Below, one piece after another: positions 4,781-42,064 of a stretch of 42,147 nt of DNA (position 1 is its first letter; every line of letters starts with the position of its first letter). A program made the translations under genes and the position numbers. Source of the stretch: a virus; the IMG/VR virus record IMGVR_UViG_3300045988_041214, positions 1-42,147 of that record, one strand, 5' to 3'. The notes under the pieces are model-generated. The model did no database searches and was not told the origin of the DNA. It was given only the letters and a program-made list of their open reading frames with translations.

Positions 4781-5092
4781 ATGAACGAAAACAAACCACA
4801 GGTGGCAACATGGGCGCTCTGCGTCGACATCGACACCGACAACCCGGAATCCGACCCCACACTCATCTGCACACTCGACATACCGCTGGACGCATTCAAA
4901 GGCGGCCTGGTCGGCGTCACCCTTGCCAGCAACATGGGCGAGGACACTGCGCTTGCCGCCCGAGTCGTATGCCAGGCCCTCGACAAGGCGCTCAAACGTC
5001 ACCTCGAACGCGGCGGCGACAACGAAACCCCGGAAATGCTCACCGGCCTCCATATCGACCCGATGGGCGACATTCGGGACGCCCGGCCATGA
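4781..5092 (+). CDS. Hypothetical protein
   Basis: RBS AAAGGAAAA before the ATG at 4781. Confidence 0.6.
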   Translation: MNENKPQVATWALCVDIDTDNPESDPTLICTLDIPLDAFKGGLVGVTLASNMGEDTALAARVVCQALDKALKRHLERGGDNETPEMLTGLHIDPMGDIRDARP

Positions 5093-5307
5093 CAGACCTG
5101 CTCACGCCATCTGAACTGGCTGTCATGCTCGGCATGAGCGTGCGTACCCTCGCCAACTGGCGGTCTAACGGCAAGGGCCCGCCATACGTGAAAATCGGCG
5201 TGGAACCGCCCGAAGGACATCAGGACAGGCGCAAAGTCAGATACGAGCTTCAAGTCGCGGAACGGTGGGCTTTGGCGCACAAGTACCAGAGGACGGTGGC
5301 GAGATGA
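5089..5307 (+). CDS. Excisionase/MerR-like HTH DNA-binding protein
   Basis: LTPSELAVMLGMSVRTLANWRSNGKGPPYVKIG is the pattern typical of Xis/AlpA-type HTH proteins. ATGA coupling. Confidence 0.6.
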   Translation: MTDLLTPSELAVMLGMSVRTLANWRSNGKGPPYVKIGVEPPEGHQDRRKVRYELQVAERWALAHKYQRTVAR

Positions 5308-6252: not shown

Positions 6253-7211
6253 AGCGGATACCACTCAAGGACACGGAACGCTACACGTTGGAACGGTTCC
6301 GACAGTGCAAGAAAACGGAACGTCATCTCGCATGGCTGAAGAGCCGTAAGGCTGGTGTCGGCGGTTCCGACATGAGCACGATCCTCGGCCTGAATTCCTT
6401 TAAGACACCGTATGAGCTGTGGCTTGAGAAGACCGGACGCGTGGAACCGGAGGACATCTCCGACAAGTGGGCTGTCATCCGCGGCAATGCCTTGGAGAAC
6501 GAGCTTCGCAAGCGTTTCCGCGCCAATCATCCGGAAATGCTCGTCACGGATGGCACTGACAAGCAATTCATCAGCCGCGAAAAGCCCTATCTGAGGGCTT
6601 CCCTTGACGGCATCCTGCAGAAAGAGAACGGCGATTTTGGGATCCTCGAAATCAAGACGGCGAGCAGCCGTCGAGCGGGGGACTGGCATGACAAGGAAGG
6701 CAACCTCCGAATCCCGCCATACTACTTGGCTCAGGTCGAATTCTACACGCTCGTCACTGGATGGACATGGGGCTACGTGTACGCGGCCATCGGAGACGAC
6801 GAGCCGGTGGAGATACCGTTCGAGGCCGACGTGGAGGACATGGCCGCGATCGACAAGGCCGCAGCCGACTTCTGGCATTTCGTCACCACCGGCACTCCAC
6901 CGCAATTGACTGCCGGCGACGTGCAGAAGGCGTTCCCGGAACCGACGCCGGACATCGTTGACGAAAGCGCCGACGATGACCTCTACGACCTGCTCGCAAG
7001 ATACGAGAGCGCCACCGGAATGCTTCATGACATGAAGGCCACTCAGAAGGAATTGCAGGAACAGATCATCCTGCGCATCGGCTCGCATGCGGGCGTGCGC
7101 TGCGGCAACCTCCAAGCCACCTACAAGACGACGACCCGCAAGGAGTACACCGTCAAAGCCACCACATACCGCAAATTCGCATTCAAATCCATCGAAGAAA
7201 AGGAGCAATGA
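6249..7211 (+). CDS. YqaJ/lambda-Exo-like recombination exonuclease
   Basis: N-terminal GVGGSDMSTILGLNSFKTPYELWLEKTG signature and PD-(D/E)XK-like core (LEIKT). Lies directly upstream of RecT. Confidence 0.8.
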   Translation: MKRIPLKDTERYTLERFRQCKKTERHLAWLKSRKAGVGGSDMSTILGLNSFKTPYELWLEKTGRVEPEDISDKWAVIRGNALENELRKRFRANHPEMLVTDGTDKQFISREKPYLRASLDGILQKENGDFGILEIKTASSRRAGDWHDKEGNLRIPPYYLAQVEFYTLVTGWTWGYVYAAIGDDEPVEIPFEADVEDMAAIDKAAADFWHFVTTGTPPQLTAGDVQKAFPEPTPDIVDESADDDLYDLLARYESATGMLHDMKATQKELQEQIILRIGSHAGVRCGNLQATYKTTTRKEYTVKATTYRKFAFKSIEEKEQ

Positions 7212-33303: not shown

Positions 33304-33477
33304 TTGACTCAGATTCCAGCCGACGCGAATCAGGTCATCGACCAGCTCGCACAACAGATCGGCGCACTCAACAAGCAAATCGCAATCCTTAACAGCCAAC
33401 TCGCGGCGGCCATGAAATTGATTCCGCAGGATGTGCTCGACGCAGCCAAGGGGGTGGATGATGACATTGAGGATTAA
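33304..33477 (+). CDS. Small coiled-coil protein (57 aa, TTG start, below the ORF-track cutoff)
   Basis: RBS AAGGAGA 5 nt before the TTG. Heptad-like sequence VIDQLAQQIGALNKQIAILNSQLAAA. Confidence 0.45.
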   Translation: MTQIPADANQVIDQLAQQIGALNKQIAILNSQLAAAMKLIPQDVLDAAKGVDDDIED

Positions 33478-33991
33478 CTGGTTCCCGGACCCGAACATCA
33501 CCGGCACCGCGCCCATTGGAGTGGCCAATGTGAAGGTTGACTACCCACTCGTTAACGGCCGCAAATGGATGCGTGCGATCCGCACAGGCACGGGAGACGT
33601 CCACGCTGAGTATGCCCTGTCCGACTCGCAGCTTCCACCGGCCGGCTCGTACCATGTACACACCAATGTCTACGCGCAGGAGGCCGAAGCCCGTTTCATT
33701 GTCTTCGTCAGGGTTAACGGCTCATATCAACAACTGCTCAACATGCCGGTCAGCAAAGACTATACCGTCATGGTGGACCAGACCATCACCATTCCGGCCG
33801 GCTGCTCTCAGCTGATCTTCCGCATCGCTCTTAACGGCCAAGCGGTCGGTGCGATAAGCATGATGAGCGATATCCTCATCGAACGCGCCGACACTTACGC
33901 CGCCTCCGTTGGGGGGGGCTTCCGGGCTTCTTCTCGGGGGACACGATGCCACGCGATTAAGACGGTCCGTCGGGCGGGTGATGTCCGATGA
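33458..33991 (+). CDS. Tail-associated beta-sandwich-like paralogue 1; C-terminus out of frame after a G8 tract
   Basis: Starts like actinophage minor-tail modules (INWFPDPN). After GGGGGGGG (33911-33918) the conserved ending LPGFFSGDTMPRD* lies in the -1 frame and would stop at 33960. Confidence 0.6.
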   Translation: MMTLRINWFPDPNITGTAPIGVANVKVDYPLVNGRKWMRAIRTGTGDVHAEYALSDSQLPPAGSYHVHTNVYAQEAEARFIVFVRVNGSYQQLLNMPVSKDYTVMVDQTITIPAGCSQLIFRIALNGQAVGAISMMSDILIERADTYAASVGGGFRASSRGTRCHAIKTVRRAGDVR

Positions 33992-34356
33992 TGGTGACGA
34001 ACCTATGCACGAGCCCATCCTCGACAATCACCCTGCAAGCAGACAAGTGGGTGCATCTCACGACCGTTCCGAGCGTGAAATGGATGTCATATTGGGTCAG
34101 TTTCGATGTGAACGTCACAGGCGGCACTGTCTCGATTATCGGAACACAGGGCGAATTCAGCGCACGCCAACGTGTCAGCTACATGACGTACATCAACAAT
34201 TCCAGTCCGCTATCAGCGAATTATTCCGTCAAGTCAGGCAGTCCGACCGTCACCGTGACAAATATACTCATCTGCACGTGGGCCGAGTATCAGGCGAACA
34301 AGGCCCTGCTCGACGGCATCGAATATTTCGACGGGGATACGATGCCGCGCGCCTGA
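33988..34356 (+). CDS. Tail-associated beta-sandwich-like paralogue 2
   Basis: Ends in YFDGDTMPRA*. Confidence 0.6.
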   Translation: MMVTNLCTSPSSTITLQADKWVHLTTVPSVKWMSYWVSFDVNVTGGTVSIIGTQGEFSARQRVSYMTYINNSSPLSANYSVKSGSPTVTVTNILICTWAEYQANKALLDGIEYFDGDTMPRA

Positions 34357-34378
34357 CCCTCGCATTGGGGGTGGTGGC

Positions 34379-34774
34379 ATGACTTCCATCGTTAATCACT
34401 GCGTCATGCCGAAAGACGGTGTGAGCGTCAAGACGACGAACACGACACCATCGGACATCACGTTCACGGGGTTGACGGCGGGCGTGAAATACCATGTGAG
34501 CGTCGTCTGTTGCATGCTGTCCACGAGTGGCGACAATCCGCGCTTGCGTCTCACCACCAATGGCAGCGATAGTGGGCTGGTCACTTCGAATGGTCGCGTG
34601 GATTACGTCTTCACCGCCGCCGACACCACCACTCACGGCATTCTCGTCGGTCTGAACAATTGCACGGTCAATCTGAGCAAGGGCTTGTGCGTGCCTCAAG
34701 ACCAGTGGCAGCAGCTCGTCTCGTTGGGATTGCCGGGCAATTATTTCGATGGCGACACCATGCCAAAAGATTAA
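34379..34774 (+). CDS. Tail-associated beta-sandwich-like paralogue 3
   Basis: Ends in LPGNYFDGDTMPKD*. Confidence 0.6.
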   Translation: MTSIVNHCVMPKDGVSVKTTNTTPSDITFTGLTAGVKYHVSVVCCMLSTSGDNPRLRLTTNGSDSGLVTSNGRVDYVFTAADTTTHGILVGLNNCTVNLSKGLCVPQDQWQQLVSLGLPGNYFDGDTMPKD

Positions 34775-36712: not shown

Positions 36713-37551
36713 ATGGGCATCAGACAGCAGACGATTGACGATTACGGCGCGTTCGTGGACAAATTCAAACCGAAGAAGACCACGGATGACTGCTATACCC
36801 CCCCGCAGTGTATGAGACGATAAAGGACTGGGCATGCCGTGAGTTTGGCATCGACCCCAGCAAGGTGGTGCGACCGTTCTATCCGGGCGGCGATTACGAG
36901 CGGTTCGACTATTCGGGCGGTGCGGTGGTTGTGGATAATCCGCCGTTCAGCATCCTGTCGAAGATCTGCACGTTCTATCGGACGGAGCAAATTCCGTTCT
37001 TCCTGTTCGCGCCGTATCTCACGATCTTCTCCAGCACGTCGCGCAATGGGGCGCACATGATCGTCACGAATTCGACCATCGAATATGCTAACGGCGCGCA
37101 GGTCAACACCAGCTTCGTGACGAGTTTCGGTGATGACCTGATCCGCACCGCGCCGGACTTGGCCAACGCGATCGACGAGACCGTGAAGCGCGTCAGGAAA
37201 GAGCAACGCAGGCATCCGCCGAAATACTCGTATCCGCGTGAACTGCTTACCGTGAGCAGGCTCGGGAAGATTAGCAAGCAGGTCGAGTTCCGCGTCAAGG
37301 CTTCAGACGTTGCGTTCACGAGGGCTCTCGACTCGCAGAAGGCCGTGAAGAAGGCCATCTACGGCGGCGGCTATCTCCTGAGCGAAGCTAAGGCCGCGGA
37401 ACTGAAGGCCGCGGAACTGAAGGCCGCGGAACTGAAGGCCGCGGAACTGAAGGCCGCGGAACTGAAGGCCGCGGAACTGAAGGCCGCAGAAGATGTGACG
37501 GTATGGCCGCTCAGCGATTCCGAGAAGCGGATCATCGAAAACCTCGCATGA
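36713..37551 (+). pseudogene. DNA methyltransferase (DNPPF motif) split by a frameshift at a C7 tract
   Basis: Frame A reads MGIRQQ...TTDDCYTPPQCMRR* and stops at 36823. Frame B is open from 36790 and reads (PPA)VYETIKDW...VVVDNPPFSIL... to 37551. One extra C in CCCCCCC (36798-36804) fuses them. Confidence 0.7.
37390..37488 (+). repeat. Perfect 15-bp tandem repeat AAGGCCGCGGAACTG x6 plus a partial copy (encodes (AAELK)n)
   Basis: Counted directly. In frame within the methyltransferase 3' end. Confidence 0.95.
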
Positions 37552-37606: not shown

Positions 37607-37648
37607 GCCCCTCTCTCAGCTATGGCTGGGGGAGGGGCTTTTTGTGTT
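37607..37648 (+). terminator. Terminator hairpin, family GCCCCTCTCTCAGC/GCTGGGGGAGGGGC
   Basis: 14-nt arms (two G-U pairs), 4-nt loop and a T-run. Confidence 0.65.
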
Positions 37649-37836: not shown

Positions 37837-37876
37837 GCCCCTCTCTCAGCGCACGCTGGGGGAGGGGCGTTTTTGT
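37837..37876 (+). terminator. Terminator hairpin, second member of the same family
   Basis: Arms identical to 37607..37638, with a different 4-nt loop, followed by a T-run. Confidence 0.65.
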
Positions 37877-37892
37877 TATTTATGAACTCTAC

Positions 37893-37936
37893 GTGGAAGT
37901 TCTGCTGAGGCTAGCGGTTATTAGCAGAACTTCCAC
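37893..37936. repeat. 14-bp perfect inverted repeat GTGGAAGTTCTGCT / AGCAGAACTTCCAC (16-nt spacer)
   Basis: Read directly. Ends 11 nt before the RBS of the mini-ORF. Confidence 0.85.
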
Positions 37937-37960
37937 ATAGCAAAACGAAAGGAGGAGCCT

Positions 37961-38020
37961 ATGGGTAATGCAACAATGCTGATTCTCGCTATCGTTGTGC
38001 TTGTTCTCGTGTCGAAATAG
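37961..38020 (+). CDS. 19-aa hydrophobic peptide MGNATMLILAIVVLVLVSK
   Basis: Strong RBS AAAGGAGGA 4 nt upstream, and a hairpin terminator downstream. Confidence 0.45.
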   Translation: MGNATMLILAIVVLVLVSK

Positions 38021-38038
38021 AACAAATATAACAATAGT

Positions 38039-38072
38039 GCGGGTGAAGGACATGAATGCGTCGTTCACCCGC
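38039..38072. terminator. Hairpin between convergent transcription units
   Basis: GCGGGTGAA...TTCACCCGC (9 bp). T-rich on the minus-strand side. Confidence 0.5.
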
Positions 38073-38130
38073 GAATAAGCATTTTCATTGAGGAATTGTA
38101 TTTATGTGTTTTTGAAGAGGGTTAATGGTG

Positions 38131-38310
38131 TCAGATGGTGAATTCCTCGCCGTACTTGGCGTAGTGCCTGTCGAGGTATGCGTCGAAGAATTCCTGGTCG
38201 GTGCAGGGCGCCATCTCGGCGTGCAACTCCTCGCGAATCTCATCGTCCATGAGGTTGACTGCGGTGGTGAAGTCGATTTCCTTGTCGTTTTGGTCGATGA
38301 CGGTGGTCAT
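38131..38310 (-). CDS. 59-aa acidic protein (below the ORF-track cutoff)
   Basis: Hand translation: MTTVIDQNDKEIDFTTAVNLMDDEIREELHAEMAPCTDQEFFDAYLDRHYAKYGEEFTI. The RBS GAAAGGA is supplied by repeat copy 1. Confidence 0.6.
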   Translation of the reverse strand: MTTVIDQNDKEIDFTTAVNLMDDEIREELHAEMAPCTDQEFFDAYLDRHYAKYGEEFTI

Positions 38311-38313
38311 TTG

Positions 38314-38385
38314 GTTTGTCCTTTCTGTTTTGCTGACATGATTTATATTACTCCGATTGGAGTAATATGCAAGTCGGGCGTGTCG
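38314..38385. repeat. 72-bp perfect direct repeat, copy 1 (78 bp with one mismatch if the ATG is included)
   Basis: Identical to 40709..40780, offset 2395 bp. On the minus strand it reads TTGCAT-16 nt-TAATAT, a 5'UTR and the RBS. Contains the palindrome ATATTACTCC-gatt-GGAGTAATAT (38345-38368). Confidence 0.95.
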
Positions 38386-38388
38386 AAA

Positions 38389-38637
38389 TCAATCGGACAG
38401 GCCGGCCCAGAAATCATCCAGCGACAAGCCCAAGGCGTCAGCCATCCGCTTCGCCATCTCAAATCTCATGATGCGCGGATTCCTTGCCGACTTTGGACGC
38501 GGCAACTGATCCCACGCCTCCCACGACCACACTCTGCCGACAGCGCTGCACCCTATCGCATGGCACAGCTCCTGCTGCGACAATCCGGCATCCTCACGCA
38601 TCGCCTTGAGCCCCATCTCAATCCTCCTTGTCTCCAC
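38389..38637 (-). CDS. XRE-family HTH protein (82 aa)
   Basis: LSQQELCHAIGCSAVGRVWSWE HTH segment. The start overlaps the recombinase 3' end by 20 nt. The stop lies 3 nt from repeat copy 1. Confidence 0.65.
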   Translation of the reverse strand: METRRIEMGLKAMREDAGLSQQELCHAIGCSAVGRVWSWEAWDQLPRPKSARNPRIMRFEMAKRMADALGLSLDDFWAGLSD

Positions 38638-39487
38638 TTAGGAAATCCTGCAATCCGTCGCCAGCTTTGCCATTCAGCCCGCGACGGGACATGTCGTAAT
38701 AGTCGAGCATCTGCGGACTGCTCCACCCCGCTGCGGCCATGATGTCCCTGTCCGGCACACCAGCGTCACGGGAGAGCGTGCAGAACGTGCGTCGCAATGA
38801 ATGCGGCGAAATATCCGGCACGCCCACGCGCAATGCCACGGACGATACGATGCCCACGGCGGTCTGCTGCCGCAGACGCACGCCGGAATCCTCACGGAAC
38901 ACTGCACCACGCCTACGTTCGCCAACGAGTCGTGCGAGAGCCTCGGACGCCTCGGAGGGAATGGCCACACGCTGAGACCAGTCGCCCTTGCGGTCAAACC
39001 GCACCCACGGACGCCCGTCATCCAGATGACAGTCTTCAACATCCAGTCCAAGCGCCTCACCGATCCTCGCGCCGGTCAACAGCAGCAGACTGCACAGGGC
39101 ATCCGTCCTCGCATCCATACCGCGTGCTTCGGCCAGAAAAAGCCTTGCCTGCTCGCGGGTGAGATACGAGCCGTCCGAATGACCGTACATTTTCGGCCTA
39201 CGCACATGCTCGCCCGGATTGCAGTCGATATACCCCTCCTCGAAGAGGTAGCGGTAGAGGCAGCAAACGACGCTCAGATTCCTGTACGCCGTGCTTTTCG
39301 CCGCTGGCCGCATGCCGCCGTCATAGGCGGCGAACACCTCGATATGGGTGCGCTTCGCCCGCAGCGCGTTGACGCCGTTGTCGGAACACCAGCGGAGCCA
39401 TCGTGATACGACGCTCCGATACACGGCCCTCGTGCTCGGAGACACCCCGGCGAGGAATCCGGCGATCATGTCGCTCACCGTTTCCAT
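38618..39487 (-). CDS. Tyrosine recombinase, short Xer/Cre-like type (289 aa)
   Basis: Catalytic pattern TGARIGEAL ... HSLRRTF ... AGWSS ... LDYYD. Has an N-terminal SAM-like core-binding domain and no arm-binding extension. Confidence 0.85.
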   Translation of the reverse strand: METVSDMIAGFLAGVSPSTRAVYRSVVSRWLRWCSDNGVNALRAKRTHIEVFAAYDGGMRPAAKSTAYRNLSVVCCLYRYLFEEGYIDCNPGEHVRRPKMYGHSDGSYLTREQARLFLAEARGMDARTDALCSLLLLTGARIGEALGLDVEDCHLDDGRPWVRFDRKGDWSQRVAIPSEASEALARLVGERRRGAVFREDSGVRLRQQTAVGIVSSVALRVGVPDISPHSLRRTFCTLSRDAGVPDRDIMAAAGWSSPQMLDYYDMSRRGLNGKAGDGLQDFLSGDKED

Positions 39488-40383
39488 ATGCGCACCGTCT
39501 CCTTACAGACAAGCGGCTTGTCGGCCGGGCCTTTGACGAAGGGTGGTATCCACTGGCGTCGGCGGAGCGAATGATTCGGACCATACGCCTGATTACGCCA
39601 AAAACCGCGCACGATGAAACGATGCGTATATTCACGTCGCACACGTTCGTCATCATCGGCGCTTTCACCTGGACGATGCAGGTTCTCCCGCAGCACCAGC
39701 ATCTTGACCTTGCGGATTTCCGGCTCGAAGCGCGACGGCGACGGGTATCTCATGCTGGGTTCGGCGGGCTTGGTGTCGCAGATGCGCGGCTCGCCGCTCA
39801 ACGCCCAGACGGCATACAGCAGGCCGCAGATGCGCGGCTCGCCGCTCAACGCCCAGACGGCATACAGCAGGCCGCAGACCCACTGGAAGCTCCCATCGCC
39901 CTCGCGGACGACGGAAGGAGCGAGCCCGACGACGGGGAGGCCGAATAAATCGGCGTGCATCTCCCTGATGCCGACTGGATTGTCGGTGAACACCGATATT
40001 TTGATGCTCTCGTGCCCCACGTCCTGCCATAGGATCGCGGCTATGCGTGTCTCTCCGAATCCGTCATCATCGAGATGGAATGAGATGTGCCGCACGTCGC
40101 CATCGAAGAAGACCATTCCGCATTGCGTCGGCGGATCTGGTTTCGGGAAATCTCCGGCCTGCACGGTATCCTCGGCCAGACGCGTCATGTCTCGGCTGAC
40201 CCACCACAATTGCGCGGTCCTGATCTGATCGGTCATGCTCCAGGCGTTGGCCATCATGGCCTCGTATTGGGTTTGCGAGCCGAGTTCCCCAAGCCTGTAT
40301 TGGGCGTAATCGGCGAGCTTGTCGCGGATGAGCGGCAGGTGGGATGGGATGATGCGAAGTCGCTTGTTCTTGCTGCGTGTCAT
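39475..40383 (-). CDS. Hypothetical 302-aa protein with an internal 16-aa exact duplication
   Basis: Overlaps the recombinase start by 13 nt. Basic C-terminus RFIVRGFWRNQAYGPNHSLRRRQWIPPFVKGP. No family recognised. Confidence 0.65.
   Translation of the reverse strand: MTRSKNKRLRIIPSHLPLIRDKLADYAQYRLGELGSQTQYEAMMANAWSMTDQIRTAQLWWVSRDMTRLAEDTVQAGDFPKPDPPTQCGMVFFDGDVRHISFHLDDDGFGETRIAAILWQDVGHESIKISVFTDNPVGIREMHADLFGLPVVGLAPSVVREGDGSFQWVCGLLYAVWALSGEPRICGLLYAVWALSGEPRICDTKPAEPSMRYPSPSRFEPEIRKVKMLVLRENLHRPGESADDDERVRREYTHRFIVRGFWRNQAYGPNHSLRRRQWIPPFVKGPADKPLVCKETVRIWKR
39778..39873. repeat. Perfect 48-bp tandem duplication (2 copies plus 5 nt)
   Basis: The unit GCAGATGCGCGGCTCGCCGCTCAACGCCCAGACGGCATACAGCAGGCC occurs at 39778-39825 and 39826-39873. 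It encodes CGLLYAVWALSGEPRI twice on the minus strand. Confidence 0.95.
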
Positions 40384-40384
40384 G

Positions 40385-40705
40385 TCAGGCCTCGACCAGC
40401 TCGTAGCGGTCTCCGGCCTTCTCGTCGAAGTCGCCGAGCTTCAGACCGTATTCGGCGAGCTTCGCGTTTGCCGCGGCCTCCCATTCGTCCTCGTCGGCGC
40501 CGTACACGTCCTCGATTTTGTCGGCGTCGGTGTCGAGGTCGCCGTATTCCGGGTCGATCTGCCATTCGAGGTCGTATCCCATCCAAATACCCTTGCCGGT
40601 GTTGGCGTCGGCCAGGAGGAGCACGTCGCAGGCGTCGCTCTGTTCGATGACGATGGGCTTGATGTCGATGGTCTTGTTGGTGTTGACGTTGGTTGCGGTG
40701 AACAT
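40385..40705 (-). CDS. 106-aa highly acidic protein
   Basis: Start at MFTATN, directly after the RBS in repeat copy 2. The stop is 1 nt before the next ATG. The longer 265-aa ORF runs through the repeat and the hairpin. Confidence 0.6.
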   Translation of the reverse strand: MFTATNVNTNKTIDIKPIVIEQSDACDVLLLADANTGKGIWMGYDLEWQIDPEYGDLDTDADKIEDVYGADEDEWEAAANAKLAEYGLKLGDFDEKAGDRYELVEA

Positions 40706-40708
40706 TTT

Positions 40709-40780
40709 GTTTGTCCTTTCTGTTTTGCTGACATGATTTATATTACTCCGATTGGAGTAATATGCAAGTCGGGCGTGTCG
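40709..40780. repeat. 72-bp perfect direct repeat, copy 2
   Basis: Identical to 38314..38385. Palindrome at 40740-40763. Confidence 0.95.
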
Positions 40781-40824
40781 CACGGTAGACTTGCAAATGT
40801 CCTTTTTGCTGACACAAACGGACA

Positions 40825-40859: not shown

Positions 40860-40894
40860 CTTATAATTGGCCATGTCAGCAAAGGAGACCACGC

Positions 40895-42064
40895 ATGGCC
40901 TACACCATCCGCCAATACACGACGAAATCCGGCAAACGCTACGAGGTGCGCTACCGCAAGCCCGACGGGTCGTCCACCGGAAGGCGTGGCTTCAAACGCA
41001 AGATGGACGCCGATGCGTGGGGAGCGGCCAATGTGACCACCGCGAAAAGCGTCGGAGCCTACATCGACCCACAGGCCGGACGCAGGCTCGTCGAAGACTT
41101 CTGGGCACCTTGGCTGGCCGCGAAGAAGACCAAGGCGAAGCCAAGCTACATCAAGTCGCTGGAAGACGCTTGGCGCGTGCATGTGGAGCCGCAGTGGGGC
41201 ATGAGGGAGATGCAGTCAATCACGCGCGACGAAGTGCAGCGGTGGGTCACCGATCTGGCAGGACGACGCAGTGCGTCGGTGACGATTCGCGCCGAGAATC
41301 TGCTTCGCAGCCTCATGGAAAGAGCGAAGGAAGACAAGTGCATCCATGACAATCCATGCGACGGCATCGAGCTGCCGCGCAAGCAGGTGCGGAAGCACGT
41401 CTATCTCTCGGCCGACGAATTGTCTCGTGTGGCGATGCAGTGCGGGTGGCGTGAGCCGATCGTGCTGACCTTGGGCCTGTGCGGCATGCGGTGGGGCGAG
41501 CTCGTGGCGCTCCGTGTCGAGGATGTTGACCTGCAACGATGCAGGCTCCATATCTGGCGCAGCATCACCAGACTGTCCAGCGAGATGGTGGAGACGGATC
41601 CGAAAACACATGAGGGGCGCGTCGTCATGTTCCCGCAGATTCTCAGACCATTGCTTGCCGGACAATGCAACGGACGTGCCCCGTCGGATTTTCTTTTCAC
41701 GTCTCCAGGCAAGCCGTTGGACGAGCCGATGGGCAATGGTTGGAATCCGACTCGGAGCGATGGCTGGTTCGCCGTCGCGTTGCGCAGGGCCGGCGTCGAG
41801 CGCGGGCATATGACTATTCATGATCTGCGGCATACGGCGGCGTCACTTATGGTGCAGTCTGGCGCGAACGTCAAGACCGTGCAAAGGCAGCTCGGCCACA
41901 AGTCGGCCGCGATGACGTTGGACGTGTACGCCGACCTGTTCGATGAGGATCTGGACGACCTGTCGGAGCGCATGGGTGGTTTGCTTTTTTCGCAGAATGT
42001 GGGCAAAATGTGGGCAAACGCGACGCAAGGTGTCGATGGAACCGTTGAACCGGCAAGTGTCTGA
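40895..42064 (+). CDS. int: Tyrosine integrase (389 aa) with N-terminal arm-binding-type domain
   Basis: RBS AAAGGAGA. N-terminus YTTKSGKRYEVRYRKPDGS (AP2-like arm binder). C-terminus HDLRHTAAS...GHKSAAMTLDVYADL. The last 16 nt lie in the terminal repeat. Confidence 0.9.
   Translation: MAYTIRQYTTKSGKRYEVRYRKPDGSSTGRRGFKRKMDADAWGAANVTTAKSVGAYIDPQAGRRLVEDFWAPWLAAKKTKAKPSYIKSLEDAWRVHVEPQWGMREMQSITRDEVQRWVTDLAGRRSASVTIRAENLLRSLMERAKEDKCIHDNPCDGIELPRKQVRKHVYLSADELSRVAMQCGWREPIVLTLGLCGMRWGELVALRVEDVDLQRCRLHIWRSITRLSSEMVETDPKTHEGRVVMFPQILRPLLAGQCNGRAPSDFLFTSPGKPLDEPMGNGWNPTRSDGWFAVALRRAGVERGHMTIHDLRHTAASLMVQSGANVKTVQRQLGHKSAAMTLDVYADLFDEDLDDLSERMGGLLFSQNVGKMWANATQGVDGTVEPASV
41999..42016 (+). promoter_or_regulatory. 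Candidate integrase arm-type sites (P side, inside the int 3' end)
   Basis: Exact copy of 161..178, in the same orientation. Confidence 0.5.

Follow-up and report, generated by a model that had tools for sequence, protein, structure and literature searches.

Introduction

A recombinase gene flanked by direct repeats raises a simple question: are the repeats substrates for the enzyme, or do they do something else? We asked this of a locus at positions 38131–40780 of IMG/VR virus record IMGVR_UViG_3300045988_041214, the full 42,147 nt of which are called the window below. Here, two direct repeats bracket four leftward genes, among them genes for a tyrosine recombinase and a small helix–turn–helix (HTH) protein, and a fifth gene follows. 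A sequence-only reading of this DNA favoured excision of a 2395-bp circle by the recombinase. As an alternative, it offered that the repeats are duplicated operator-promoters bound by the HTH protein. Our comparisons of related sequences support the alternative well, through co-variation of repeat and HTH protein and through twin repeats that occur without any recombinase. The repeats are probably twin promoter–operator–leader units (hereafter P) of the Aca type, belonging to an acrIC5 anti-CRISPR locus in a Bifidobacterium prophage.

Results

Each repeat in the acrIC5 locus carries a promoter-like sequence and a palindrome

The gene order described earlier holds. On the minus strand, the locus encodes a 106-amino-acid (aa) acidic protein (40385–40705; 25% Asp + Glu), a 302-aa protein (39475–40383), a 289-aa tyrosine recombinase without an arm-binding domain (38618–39487; PF00589, E 4e-23), an XRE-type HTH protein (38389–38616; HTH_3, E 2e-6), repeat copy 1 and a 59-aa protein (38131–38310). 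The stop codon of the HTH gene is indeed 3 nt from repeat copy 1. The HTH protein had been read as 82 aa from a GTG at 38637. It is an XRE HTH protein, as stated, but the start is more likely the ATG at 38616 (75 aa), because this codon is preceded by an AAGGAGG ribosome-binding site, lies 1 nt past the recombinase stop codon and agrees with the gene calls for homologues. The separate 389-aa integrase noted before is also present (40895–42064, plus strand). It is a canonical phage integrase, divergent from repeat copy 2, and marks the prophage end. The recombinase lies between the lysis genes and this integrase. In related contigs the integrase adjoins L-serine dehydratase genes of the host, which is Bifidobacterium.

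The 59-aa product, previously called an unrelated acidic protein, belongs to a known family. It matches Pfam PF22147 (E 9e-23) and, over its full length, PDB entry 7YHR (AcrIC5; E 1e-13). These profile matches show it to be AcrIC5, a type I-C anti-CRISPR.

The two repeats (38314–38385 and 40709–40780) are identical, as claimed: 72 nt align without a mismatch, 2395 nt apart from start to start. Similarity continues to 104 nt (38282–38385 and 40677–40780) at 88%. The extension reaches into the coding regions because the proteins that follow share an N-terminal motif. Each copy contains the reported perfect palindrome, ATATTACTCC-gatt-GGAGTAATAT, at 38345–38368 and 40740–40763. The window holds just these 2 sites, both in the repeats; shuffled sequences predict 0.00–0.01. 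Read on the minus strand, each copy has the layout CGACACGCCCGAC-TTGCAT-16 nt-TAATAT-leader-GAAAGGA-ATG. The elements of the claimed promoter are thus in place, although a generic σ70 scan does not call it. In copy 1, the −35 element is at 38367–38372 and the −10 element at 38345–38350; in copy 2, TTGCAT is at 40762–40767 and TAATAT at 40740–40745. The palindrome covers the −10 box and the spacer between −35 and −10. A terminator role for it was ruled out; the stem is AT-rich and there is no T-run.

The leader holds a 10-mer, TGTCAGCAAA, that occurs four times in the window (0.1 expected), every time inside this locus. Three copies are just 5′ of a ribosome-binding site and start codon, in the two P leaders (38329–38338 and 40724–40733, both minus strand) and in the integrase leader (40874–40883, plus strand). 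The fourth (40805–40814, minus strand) stands alone, 25 nt upstream of P copy 2, and is perhaps what is left of a leader; a third, partial leader-like copy is also present in L158, L159 and L174, which are described below. The 10-mer may be a shared 5′-leader element.

The palindrome co-varies with the HTH protein

We gathered ~200 related loci by means of the recombinase (74 viral contigs), the integrase (80 loci), promoter DNA patterns, exact-protein look-ups and a profile of the 302-aa protein. Units homologous to P head the same operons in ~50 related loci. The palindromes of these units fall into at least four classes, and the class of the operator matches that of the HTH protein in every locus where both are readable (~50 related loci).

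The first class, TATTAC-TCC-AATC-GGA-GTAATA, is that of the window and of L188, L208 and L215. It goes with the HTH recognition region CHAIGCSAVGRVWSWE (HTH proteins at least 91% identical to that of the window), and the recombinase is present except in L188. The second, TATTAC-(C/T)AC-TGTN-GT(G/A)-GTAATA, was found in ~35 loci with CRAIGSSTVGRVWAWE (65–70% identity); here L150, L152, L190 and L191 lack the recombinase. The third, TATTAC-CGC-ACTT-GCG-GTAATA, occurs in 9 loci with RAKVGINSVSYFWALE (53–55% identity) and never with the recombinase. The fourth, TATTAT-CCC-GCCT-GAG-ATAATA, is only partly symmetrical. It accompanies a fourth HTH class in L158, L159 and L174, again never with the recombinase.

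In classes 1–3, the operator changes are symmetric and compensatory, which fits a dimeric DNA-binding protein. The recombinase itself varies little between classes 1 and 2 (84–94% identity), and classes 3 and 4 lack it. The matched classes show that the palindrome belongs with the HTH protein and not with the recombinase. They also point to a regulator-specific inverted repeat in the promoter, as expected of an acr–aca locus. Two further hallmarks of such loci are a gene of a validated anti-CRISPR family, here acrIC5, and a small HTH gene in or next to the operon, which here ends just short of the acrIC5 promoter copy. By analogy, we infer that the HTH protein is an Aca-like repressor of both P copies.

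Repeats and recombinase occur independently of each other

Two architectures recur among the related loci. In type A the order is integrase, divergent P, gene X, a gene for a 286- or 291-aa protein, recombinase, HTH, P, gene Y and lysis genes; we recovered 30 such loci with both P copies. Type B consists of two other HTH genes, 2–4 kb of small acidic genes, a 286-aa gene, the recombinase and a convergent metallophosphatase. It accounts for the majority of recombinase-bearing viral loci, and has neither the 75-aa HTH gene nor the repeat. In total, the recombinase and its partner occur without the repeat in ~60 of the 74 recombinase-bearing viral loci, and also in phages BigBern1 and phi16. Since type B keeps this pair of genes without the repeat, the pair is an invariant core and the repeats lie outside it.

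The reverse arrangement was also found. In L158, L159 and L174, perfect 65-nt twin repeats homologous to P lie 610 bp apart and enclose nothing but the HTH gene and a gene for an 88-aa acidic protein. Locus L188 shares the operator class of the window and has an identical upstream flank. Its order is P, a 169-aa gene, a CRISPR-repeat-like element, a terminator, HTH and a diverged promoter, P′. Loci L150, L152, L190 and L191 are similar. Compared with loci of the L188 type, the window differs by two separate replacements that flank a conserved HTH gene, and not by gain or loss of a repeat-to-repeat unit.

A model for regulation of the locus

Copy 2 of P most likely drives the 106-aa, 302-aa, recombinase and HTH genes. 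Copy 1 most likely drives acrIC5, probably with read-through from copy 2 because no terminator lies between the HTH gene and copy 1. In the model that we favour, the 75-aa HTH protein, whose gene lies between the copies, would bind the palindrome as a dimer and use it as its operator. Aca proteins repress acr genes after an initial burst. Likewise, the HTH protein may auto-repress its own operon and, after an initial burst, repress acrIC5. Since the palindrome lies over the −10 element and the spacer, the bound repressor would block RNA polymerase. The two P copies would be kept alike by gene conversion, and would also supply homology for swapping of the genes that follow them. One small repressor between two copies of its own operator-promoter would constitute a regulatory design for anti-CRISPR loci. 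The naturally matched repressor–operator classes, at least four in number, would form an orthogonal set that is directly testable.

Several observations weigh against this model. The generic σ70 scan leaves P uncalled because the weak −35 hexamer matches at only 3 of 6 bases. Among all solved structures, none matched the sequence of the HTH protein at E ≤ 1, and the Aca label is a functional analogy only. The usual order of acr–aca loci is promoter, acr, aca; in the window, a 1.8-kb gene pair intervenes and a promoter follows the aca-like gene. The active site of the recombinase is intact, so that some recombination substrate must presumably exist, and none was found. Finally, the gene order of one contig, L179, is permuted as expected for a circle or tandem junction.

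Homogenisation and exchange at the repeats

The two P copies of a locus resemble each other more than they resemble copies elsewhere. Copies inside one locus differ at 1.3 of 61 nt, and copies from different loci at ~3.0 (permutation p < 1e-4). The copies of the window are identical over 72 nt; in the closest relative, L208, the figure is 58 nt, and a short patch makes the difference. Loci L158 and L159 are one base apart, and the change is present in both L159 copies. Hence, copies are homogenised even where the recombinase is absent. The pattern suggests gene conversion between the repeats, because it is found without the recombinase too.

The genes right after each P copy interchange between phages that are otherwise alike. 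Position 1, after copy 2, is occupied by the 106-aa gene, by acrIC5 with an RNA anti-CRISPR (Racr), by a 67-aa acidic gene, or by a 169-aa gene with a 36-aa open reading frame (ORF). Position 5, after copy 1, holds acrIC5 or genes for 98-, 136-, 189- or 85-aa proteins. Break-points fall inside P itself. Thus, P′ of L188 (~6440–6485, minus strand) shares only the left 16 nt of P (CGACACGCCCGACTTG) and then has another palindrome, GATACCA-A-TGGTATC. Similarly, P′ of L150 (~4820–4868, minus strand) shares the left part of P and continues with ATACCA-T-TGGTAT. These palindromes imply a second regulator and a recombination break-point inside the promoter. Type-B loci retain the right-hand leader only, before the 106-aa gene.

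Such exchange could be the main purpose of the repeats. They would then be linkers for RecA-type shuffling of anti-defence genes in co-infecting phages, with regulation secondary or absent. The variable genes after each copy, the presence of AcrIC5 in either position, the break-points, the retained type-B leaders and the homogenisation within loci, including the conversion patch of the window relative to L208, all agree with this. However, it leaves unexplained the symmetric, compensatory changes of the palindrome, their match to HTH class and the exact placement of the palindrome over the −10 element and spacer. As a replacement for the promoter–operator model we find this explanation unlikely. 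A linker role is compatible with that model, and is likely an added consequence of it.

The recombinase and its partner

The recombinase has a SAM-like N-terminal domain followed by a catalytic domain. Aligned to the XerD structure 1A0P, its catalytic R-K-H-R-W-Y set, with H-x-x-R, is intact, and the enzyme is predicted to be competent. It is far from the Xer models (XerD, 81.2 bits with a cut-off of 329.6; XerC, 68.1 with a cut-off of 335) and from the integron integrase model TIGR02249 (27.5 bits; cut-off 265). It is ~30% identical to arm-less integrases of Arthrobacter, Gordonia and Mycobacterium phages.

The partner, encoded by the 302-aa gene, had been listed as unknown. It indeed falls in no characterised family, but it is recognisable as a member of a 286-aa family (phrog_15934, without assigned function) that carries a private in-frame duplication. 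The duplication is a perfect 48-bp tandem repeat (39777–39872) that adds 16 aa inside the conserved motif AVWALSxEPRIC. It was seen in 0 of 28 aligned homologues, and the full-length homologues listed are mostly 284–291 aa. The duplication may stem from recent slippage during replication, may be a lesion that inactivates the gene, or may be an artefact of the assembly. Across the family, the N- and C-terminal parts are conserved, the C-terminal ~90 aa very strongly, and the middle is hypervariable. The protein has no match in Pfam, NCBIfam, PADLOC or the PDB sequence profiles, no Pfam domain was found in ten remote members of the family, and there is no similarity to known replication initiators. 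An AlphaFold2 model (predicted local distance difference test score, pLDDT, 71) gave 0 fold matches in the PDB, and in BFVD only weak matches to uncharacterised proteins.

A profile search (E ≤ 1e-3) placed 6721 cluster representatives in the 286-aa family. Of the 224 word-indexed homologues, those that are named all come from Bifidobacteriaceae, as do the 11 loci found by a genome scan with the 302-aa profile. In these loci AcrIC5, 189-aa-family or 106-aa homologues lie upstream of the pair. The 286-aa gene is always directly upstream of the recombinase gene and overlaps it, both in Bifidobacterium loci and in phage phi16. In Bifidobacteriaceae, the pair (35–47% and 41–60% identity) and its 13-nt overlap are kept, and the pair is conserved at the 3′ end of anti-defence operons. 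The pair is present in Bifidobacterium phage BigBern1. In Corynebacterium phage phi16 it corresponds to ORF29–ORF28, between integrase and lysis genes, with unannotated neighbours. The pair moves from one phage context to another with ~90% recombinase identity. Family members without the recombinase lie beside a DNA primase gene in Streptomyces phage Yara, and beside WhiB-like and FtsK/TraB-like genes in Pseudoscardovia. These neighbours suggest a role in DNA transactions.

No non-coding sequence that flanks the pair is common to types A and B. The target site of the pair is thus not adjacent to it, because no conserved flanking sequence is shared. Most likely, the pair is a conserved passenger in the operon and its target is not the repeat. 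A bolder suggestion is that the pair is itself a device for countering defence or for mobilising cassettes, an early-expressed recombination machine that acts elsewhere. It might rearrange host DNA, for example CRISPR arrays or defence loci. Alternatively, it might take up anti-defence genes and pass them from phage to phage; target specificity would then lie in the hypervariable middle of the 286-aa protein. The conserved position in anti-defence operons would suit this idea, which we regard as improbable. In any case, a widespread recombinase and partner embedded in such operons are of interest in their own right.

Two other roles for the recombinase were considered and rejected. The first, integration-dependent immunity, was prompted by the ~30% identity to arm-less integrases; it does not fit, since the gene alongside encodes no repressor and a separate integrase already serves the phage. 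The second was a role as in the Rin shufflon of bifidobacterial prophages (Mavrich et al., 2018; PMC6109161) or as an invertase acting in trans. The Rin system also has a second, arm-less tyrosine recombinase in a Bifidobacterium prophage with a canonical integrase. However, the recombinase of the window is not beside tail or receptor-binding genes. The window has no copy of the rix site TTCCCTAACCC, even when 1 mismatch is tolerated, and CAGGGTTA occurs once only. No matched pair of inverted crossover sites stands out around the tail-end genes of the window. Loci L211 and L214 have a separate recombinase near the tail genes in addition to this one.

Excision of the repeat-to-repeat segment is very unlikely

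The excision model takes the palindromes as lox- or dif-like core sites, at which the recombinase would release the 2395-bp circle and leave one promoter on acrIC5. The complete catalytic set would permit this. Direct repeats with 72 identical nt and a symmetric 10-4-10 element, and copies that evolve in concert, are likewise as expected. We nevertheless consider excision very unlikely. The specificity of the palindrome follows the HTH protein while the recombinase hardly changes or is missing. Twin repeats lack the recombinase in class 4, single repeats lack it in L188, L150 and the third-class loci, and most pairs lack the repeat. The crossover regions of a tyrosine recombinase have to be identical, and the repeats are so only in part: 10 of 16 distinct repeat-pair types have identical copies and 6 do not; in 5 of these 6 the changes are at the centre or inner arms of the palindrome (e.g. 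TGTA versus TGTT or TGTG).

A deletion allele was not seen either. The AcrIC5 protein of the window is indexed, as an exact match, in 289 blocks of a public assembly collection. Among the places listed for it, 10 of 10 hold the full cassette beside the integrase, on contigs of up to 1.7 Mb. Excision would predict an allele with integrase, P and acr and without the HTH gene. None was present in the 80 integrase loci, in 16 metagenome loci or in the 10 places listed for the exact protein. It had been proposed that relatives be checked for presence or absence exactly at the repeat. No relative lacks just the repeat-to-repeat unit, and those without the cassette keep the HTH gene.

The permuted contig L179 (positions 1–1646, 1646 bp; coverage ~1.4) favours excision at first sight. 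It runs through recombinase, HTH, P, a 169-aa gene, a 36-aa ORF and a 302-aa homologue, an order that fits a circular or tandem form of a cassette known in linear form from L207. Besides a circle, tandem cassettes would give this order, and so would mis-joining by the assembler across an identical repeat; this one contig cannot sustain the excision model. As a caution, a recombinase gene can sit between direct repeats on which its product does not act.

Least probable of all is a small, autonomous plasmid- or satellite-like element that extends from repeat to repeat. The 302-aa protein would then serve in replication or DNA binding and the recombinase would resolve or integrate the element, with regulation by the HTH protein and with the 106-aa protein as anti-defence cargo. 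The size of the 302-aa family, its primase, WhiB-like and FtsK/TraB-like neighbours, the movement of the pair between two phage contexts and L207, a linear cassette with a 169-aa gene in position 1 that is exactly one repeat-to-repeat unit, are in keeping with this, yet the protein does not resemble a replication initiator, the pair is always in prophages with no free circular contig (L179 being an ambiguous exception), the ends of L207 are breaks inside the repeat palindrome of the kind that de Bruijn assemblers make, and loci that lack the pair still have the HTH gene and P.

The published acrIC5–racrIC1 locus appears to have the same cassette

AcrIC5 orthologues in Actinobacteria have been reported (Leon et al., 2021; PMC7913775). 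A prophage-encoded AcrIC5 homologue of B. pseudocatenulatum AF18-2AC has since been validated; in P. aeruginosa it blocks type I-C CRISPR (Camara-Wilpert et al., 2023; PMC10651486). The same authors validated RacrIC1, an RNA anti-CRISPR encoded 11 nt downstream of acrIC5, and mapped the transcript start of the native, wild-type promoter by 5′ rapid amplification of cDNA ends (PMC10651486). AcrIC5 of the window is 80% identical to the B. pseudocatenulatum homologue.

A cloning primer listed in PMC10651486 encodes MSTIIDQD, the N-terminus of this 80%-identical AcrIC5 type. In six of our loci (L023, L071, L072, L075, L180 and L193), the same type is in position 1 of the cassette. Here, a RacrIC1-like unit, GTCGCGCCCCTTGCGGGGCGCGTGGATCGAAAC, starts 11 nt after AcrIC5 and directly 5′ of the 302-aa homologue. 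The six loci then run on into the 302-aa homologue, recombinase, HTH, second P and an acidic gene. The published locus appears to be a type-A cassette, with the same AcrIC5 family and the same promoter unit as the window. It differs in that acrIC5 is in position 1 and is followed by RacrIC1; the window has the 106-aa gene in position 1, acrIC5 in position 5 after the second promoter, and no Racr. A search of the window found no RacrIC1-like unit with up to 3 mismatches, or with up to 9 substitutions.

PMC10651486 is silent on the regulator, the second promoter and the recombinase. The sequence-only reading had called the whole architecture undescribed. That was too broad, since the acrIC5 family and the closely related B. 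pseudocatenulatum locus are already known (PMC7913775; PMC10651486), but it stands for the regulator, the twin promoters and the recombinase pair, which PMC10651486 does not discuss. We found no description of self-bracketing twin promoters, of a multi-class repressor–operator family, of the candidate anti-defence genes or of the in-operon pair.

Comparison with acr–aca operons and site-specific recombination systems

Aca1- and Aca2-controlled anti-CRISPR promoters of Pseudomonas and Pectobacterium phages were reportedly described in 2019 by Stanley and by Birkholz. Like the window, acr–aca operons have a strong promoter on small acidic acr genes, an HTH gene in the same operon and an inverted repeat over the core promoter for auto-repression, and their acr genes interchange beside the regulator. 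The window differs in four respects. Its HTH protein could not be related by sequence to any solved Aca structure. The operator-promoter is duplicated, with the regulator between the two promoters that it would control. The operon also takes in the 1.8-kb recombinase pair, transcribed after the first acidic gene and before the regulator. Lastly, the regulator comes in at least four operator-specificity classes.

In the Cre/lox and Xer/dif systems, too, an arm-less tyrosine recombinase (~290 aa, catalytic set complete) goes with symmetric sites in direct repeat on both sides. In our loci, however, sites and enzyme are not associated across relatives, and the enzyme does not come near the XerC and XerD cut-offs (81 against 330 bits). 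The palindrome has 10-bp arms and a 4-bp centre, and the centre differs between partner copies in several loci. Integrons, too, have a tyrosine recombinase beside swappable small genes, each after a repeated element. Here, that element is a promoter before each gene and not an attC-type site, and in type-B loci the variable genes adjoin the pair without any repeat.

Candidate anti-defence genes

The proteins in positions 1 and 5 are 21–28% Asp + Glu with a pI near 4, except for the 169-aa protein (17%). The genes after P are candidates for new anti-CRISPRs. The 106-aa protein had no match in Pfam, PHROG, NCBIfam or PADLOC. Its AlphaFold2 model is confident (pLDDT 93.6) and has 0 fold matches in the PDB. 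A confident fold without a PDB match is common for anti-CRISPRs and is no proof. We regard the protein as a candidate new anti-CRISPR or anti-defence protein. It gives no BLASTP alignment with AcrIC5, and the two are alike over the first 10–15 residues only.

This likeness is part of a wider pattern. An N-terminal motif, approximately M-x-T-x-I-D-x-N-x-K-x-I, is common to AcrIC5 and to the 106-aa, 98/136/189-aa and 85-aa proteins, which are otherwise unrelated. In the window it is encoded at 38266–38310 and 40661–40705, at the start of the 59-aa and 106-aa genes. The motif is native to Pseudomonas AcrIC5 too.

A second CRISPR-repeat-like element was found in cassette-less loci. It is a solitary unit, CTTCG(A/G)CTCAATCCGAAGCGCGTGGAT(C/T)GAAAT, 3′ of the 166- or 169-aa gene (L188 ~6860–6905 and L150 ~5220–5262, both minus strand). 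The sequence of the element is CTTCGACTCAATCCGAAGCGCGTGGATCGAAAT. It has a type I-C 3′ handle and a stem unlike that of RacrIC1, and is a candidate RNA anti-CRISPR. Together with the 106-, 98/136/189-, 67-, 85- and 169-aa families, this second RNA makes a shortlist of candidate anti-defence factors for gut Bifidobacterium. The list bears on CRISPR-based editing of bifidobacteria and on phage–host dynamics in the infant gut.

Other features of the window

The 3′ region downstream of acrIC5 (37860–38130, minus strand) is unusually structured (fold z-score of −6.8 for 37860–38135). Overlapping it on the plus strand is a 19-aa hydrophobic ORF, MGNATMLILAIVVLVLVSK (37961–38020), with a strong AGGAGG site. 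A hairpin with 18-nt arms (37889–37940) precedes this ORF, an arrangement that resembles a type I toxin–antitoxin system. An Rfam search returned nothing relevant.

At the level of DNA, a near-identity search of the window against GenBank phages gave no match, and a search in distant mode gave weak matches to Bifidobacterium phages only. The left half of P had 0 matches in a scan of genome representatives. Eight environmental loci (L001–L008) from a palindrome scan of viral contigs were set aside as chance AT-rich matches, judged from sample identifiers alone.

Three tandem genes (186, 122 and 131 aa; 33431–34774) lie just before the holin–lysin region. Their products share only a C-terminal (Y/F)F(D/S)GDTMP(R/K) motif, and each gene has a 23-nt direct repeat at its 3′ end. 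The set may represent alternative modules for the tail tip or for receptor binding. The genes share one orientation, and no inversion sites were seen. Further on, a 15-nt sequence repeated in tandem 6–7 times (37375–37509; ORF 36808–37551) specifies (AAELK)n close to the C-terminal end of a 247-aa protein, for which the only Pfam match is a weak, sub-threshold one to 'Decapeptide repeat'. Finally, two near-identical (86%) GC-rich terminator hairpins (37607–37643 and 37837–37873) lie 230 bp apart around a small ORF, and a similar terminator recurs in related loci.

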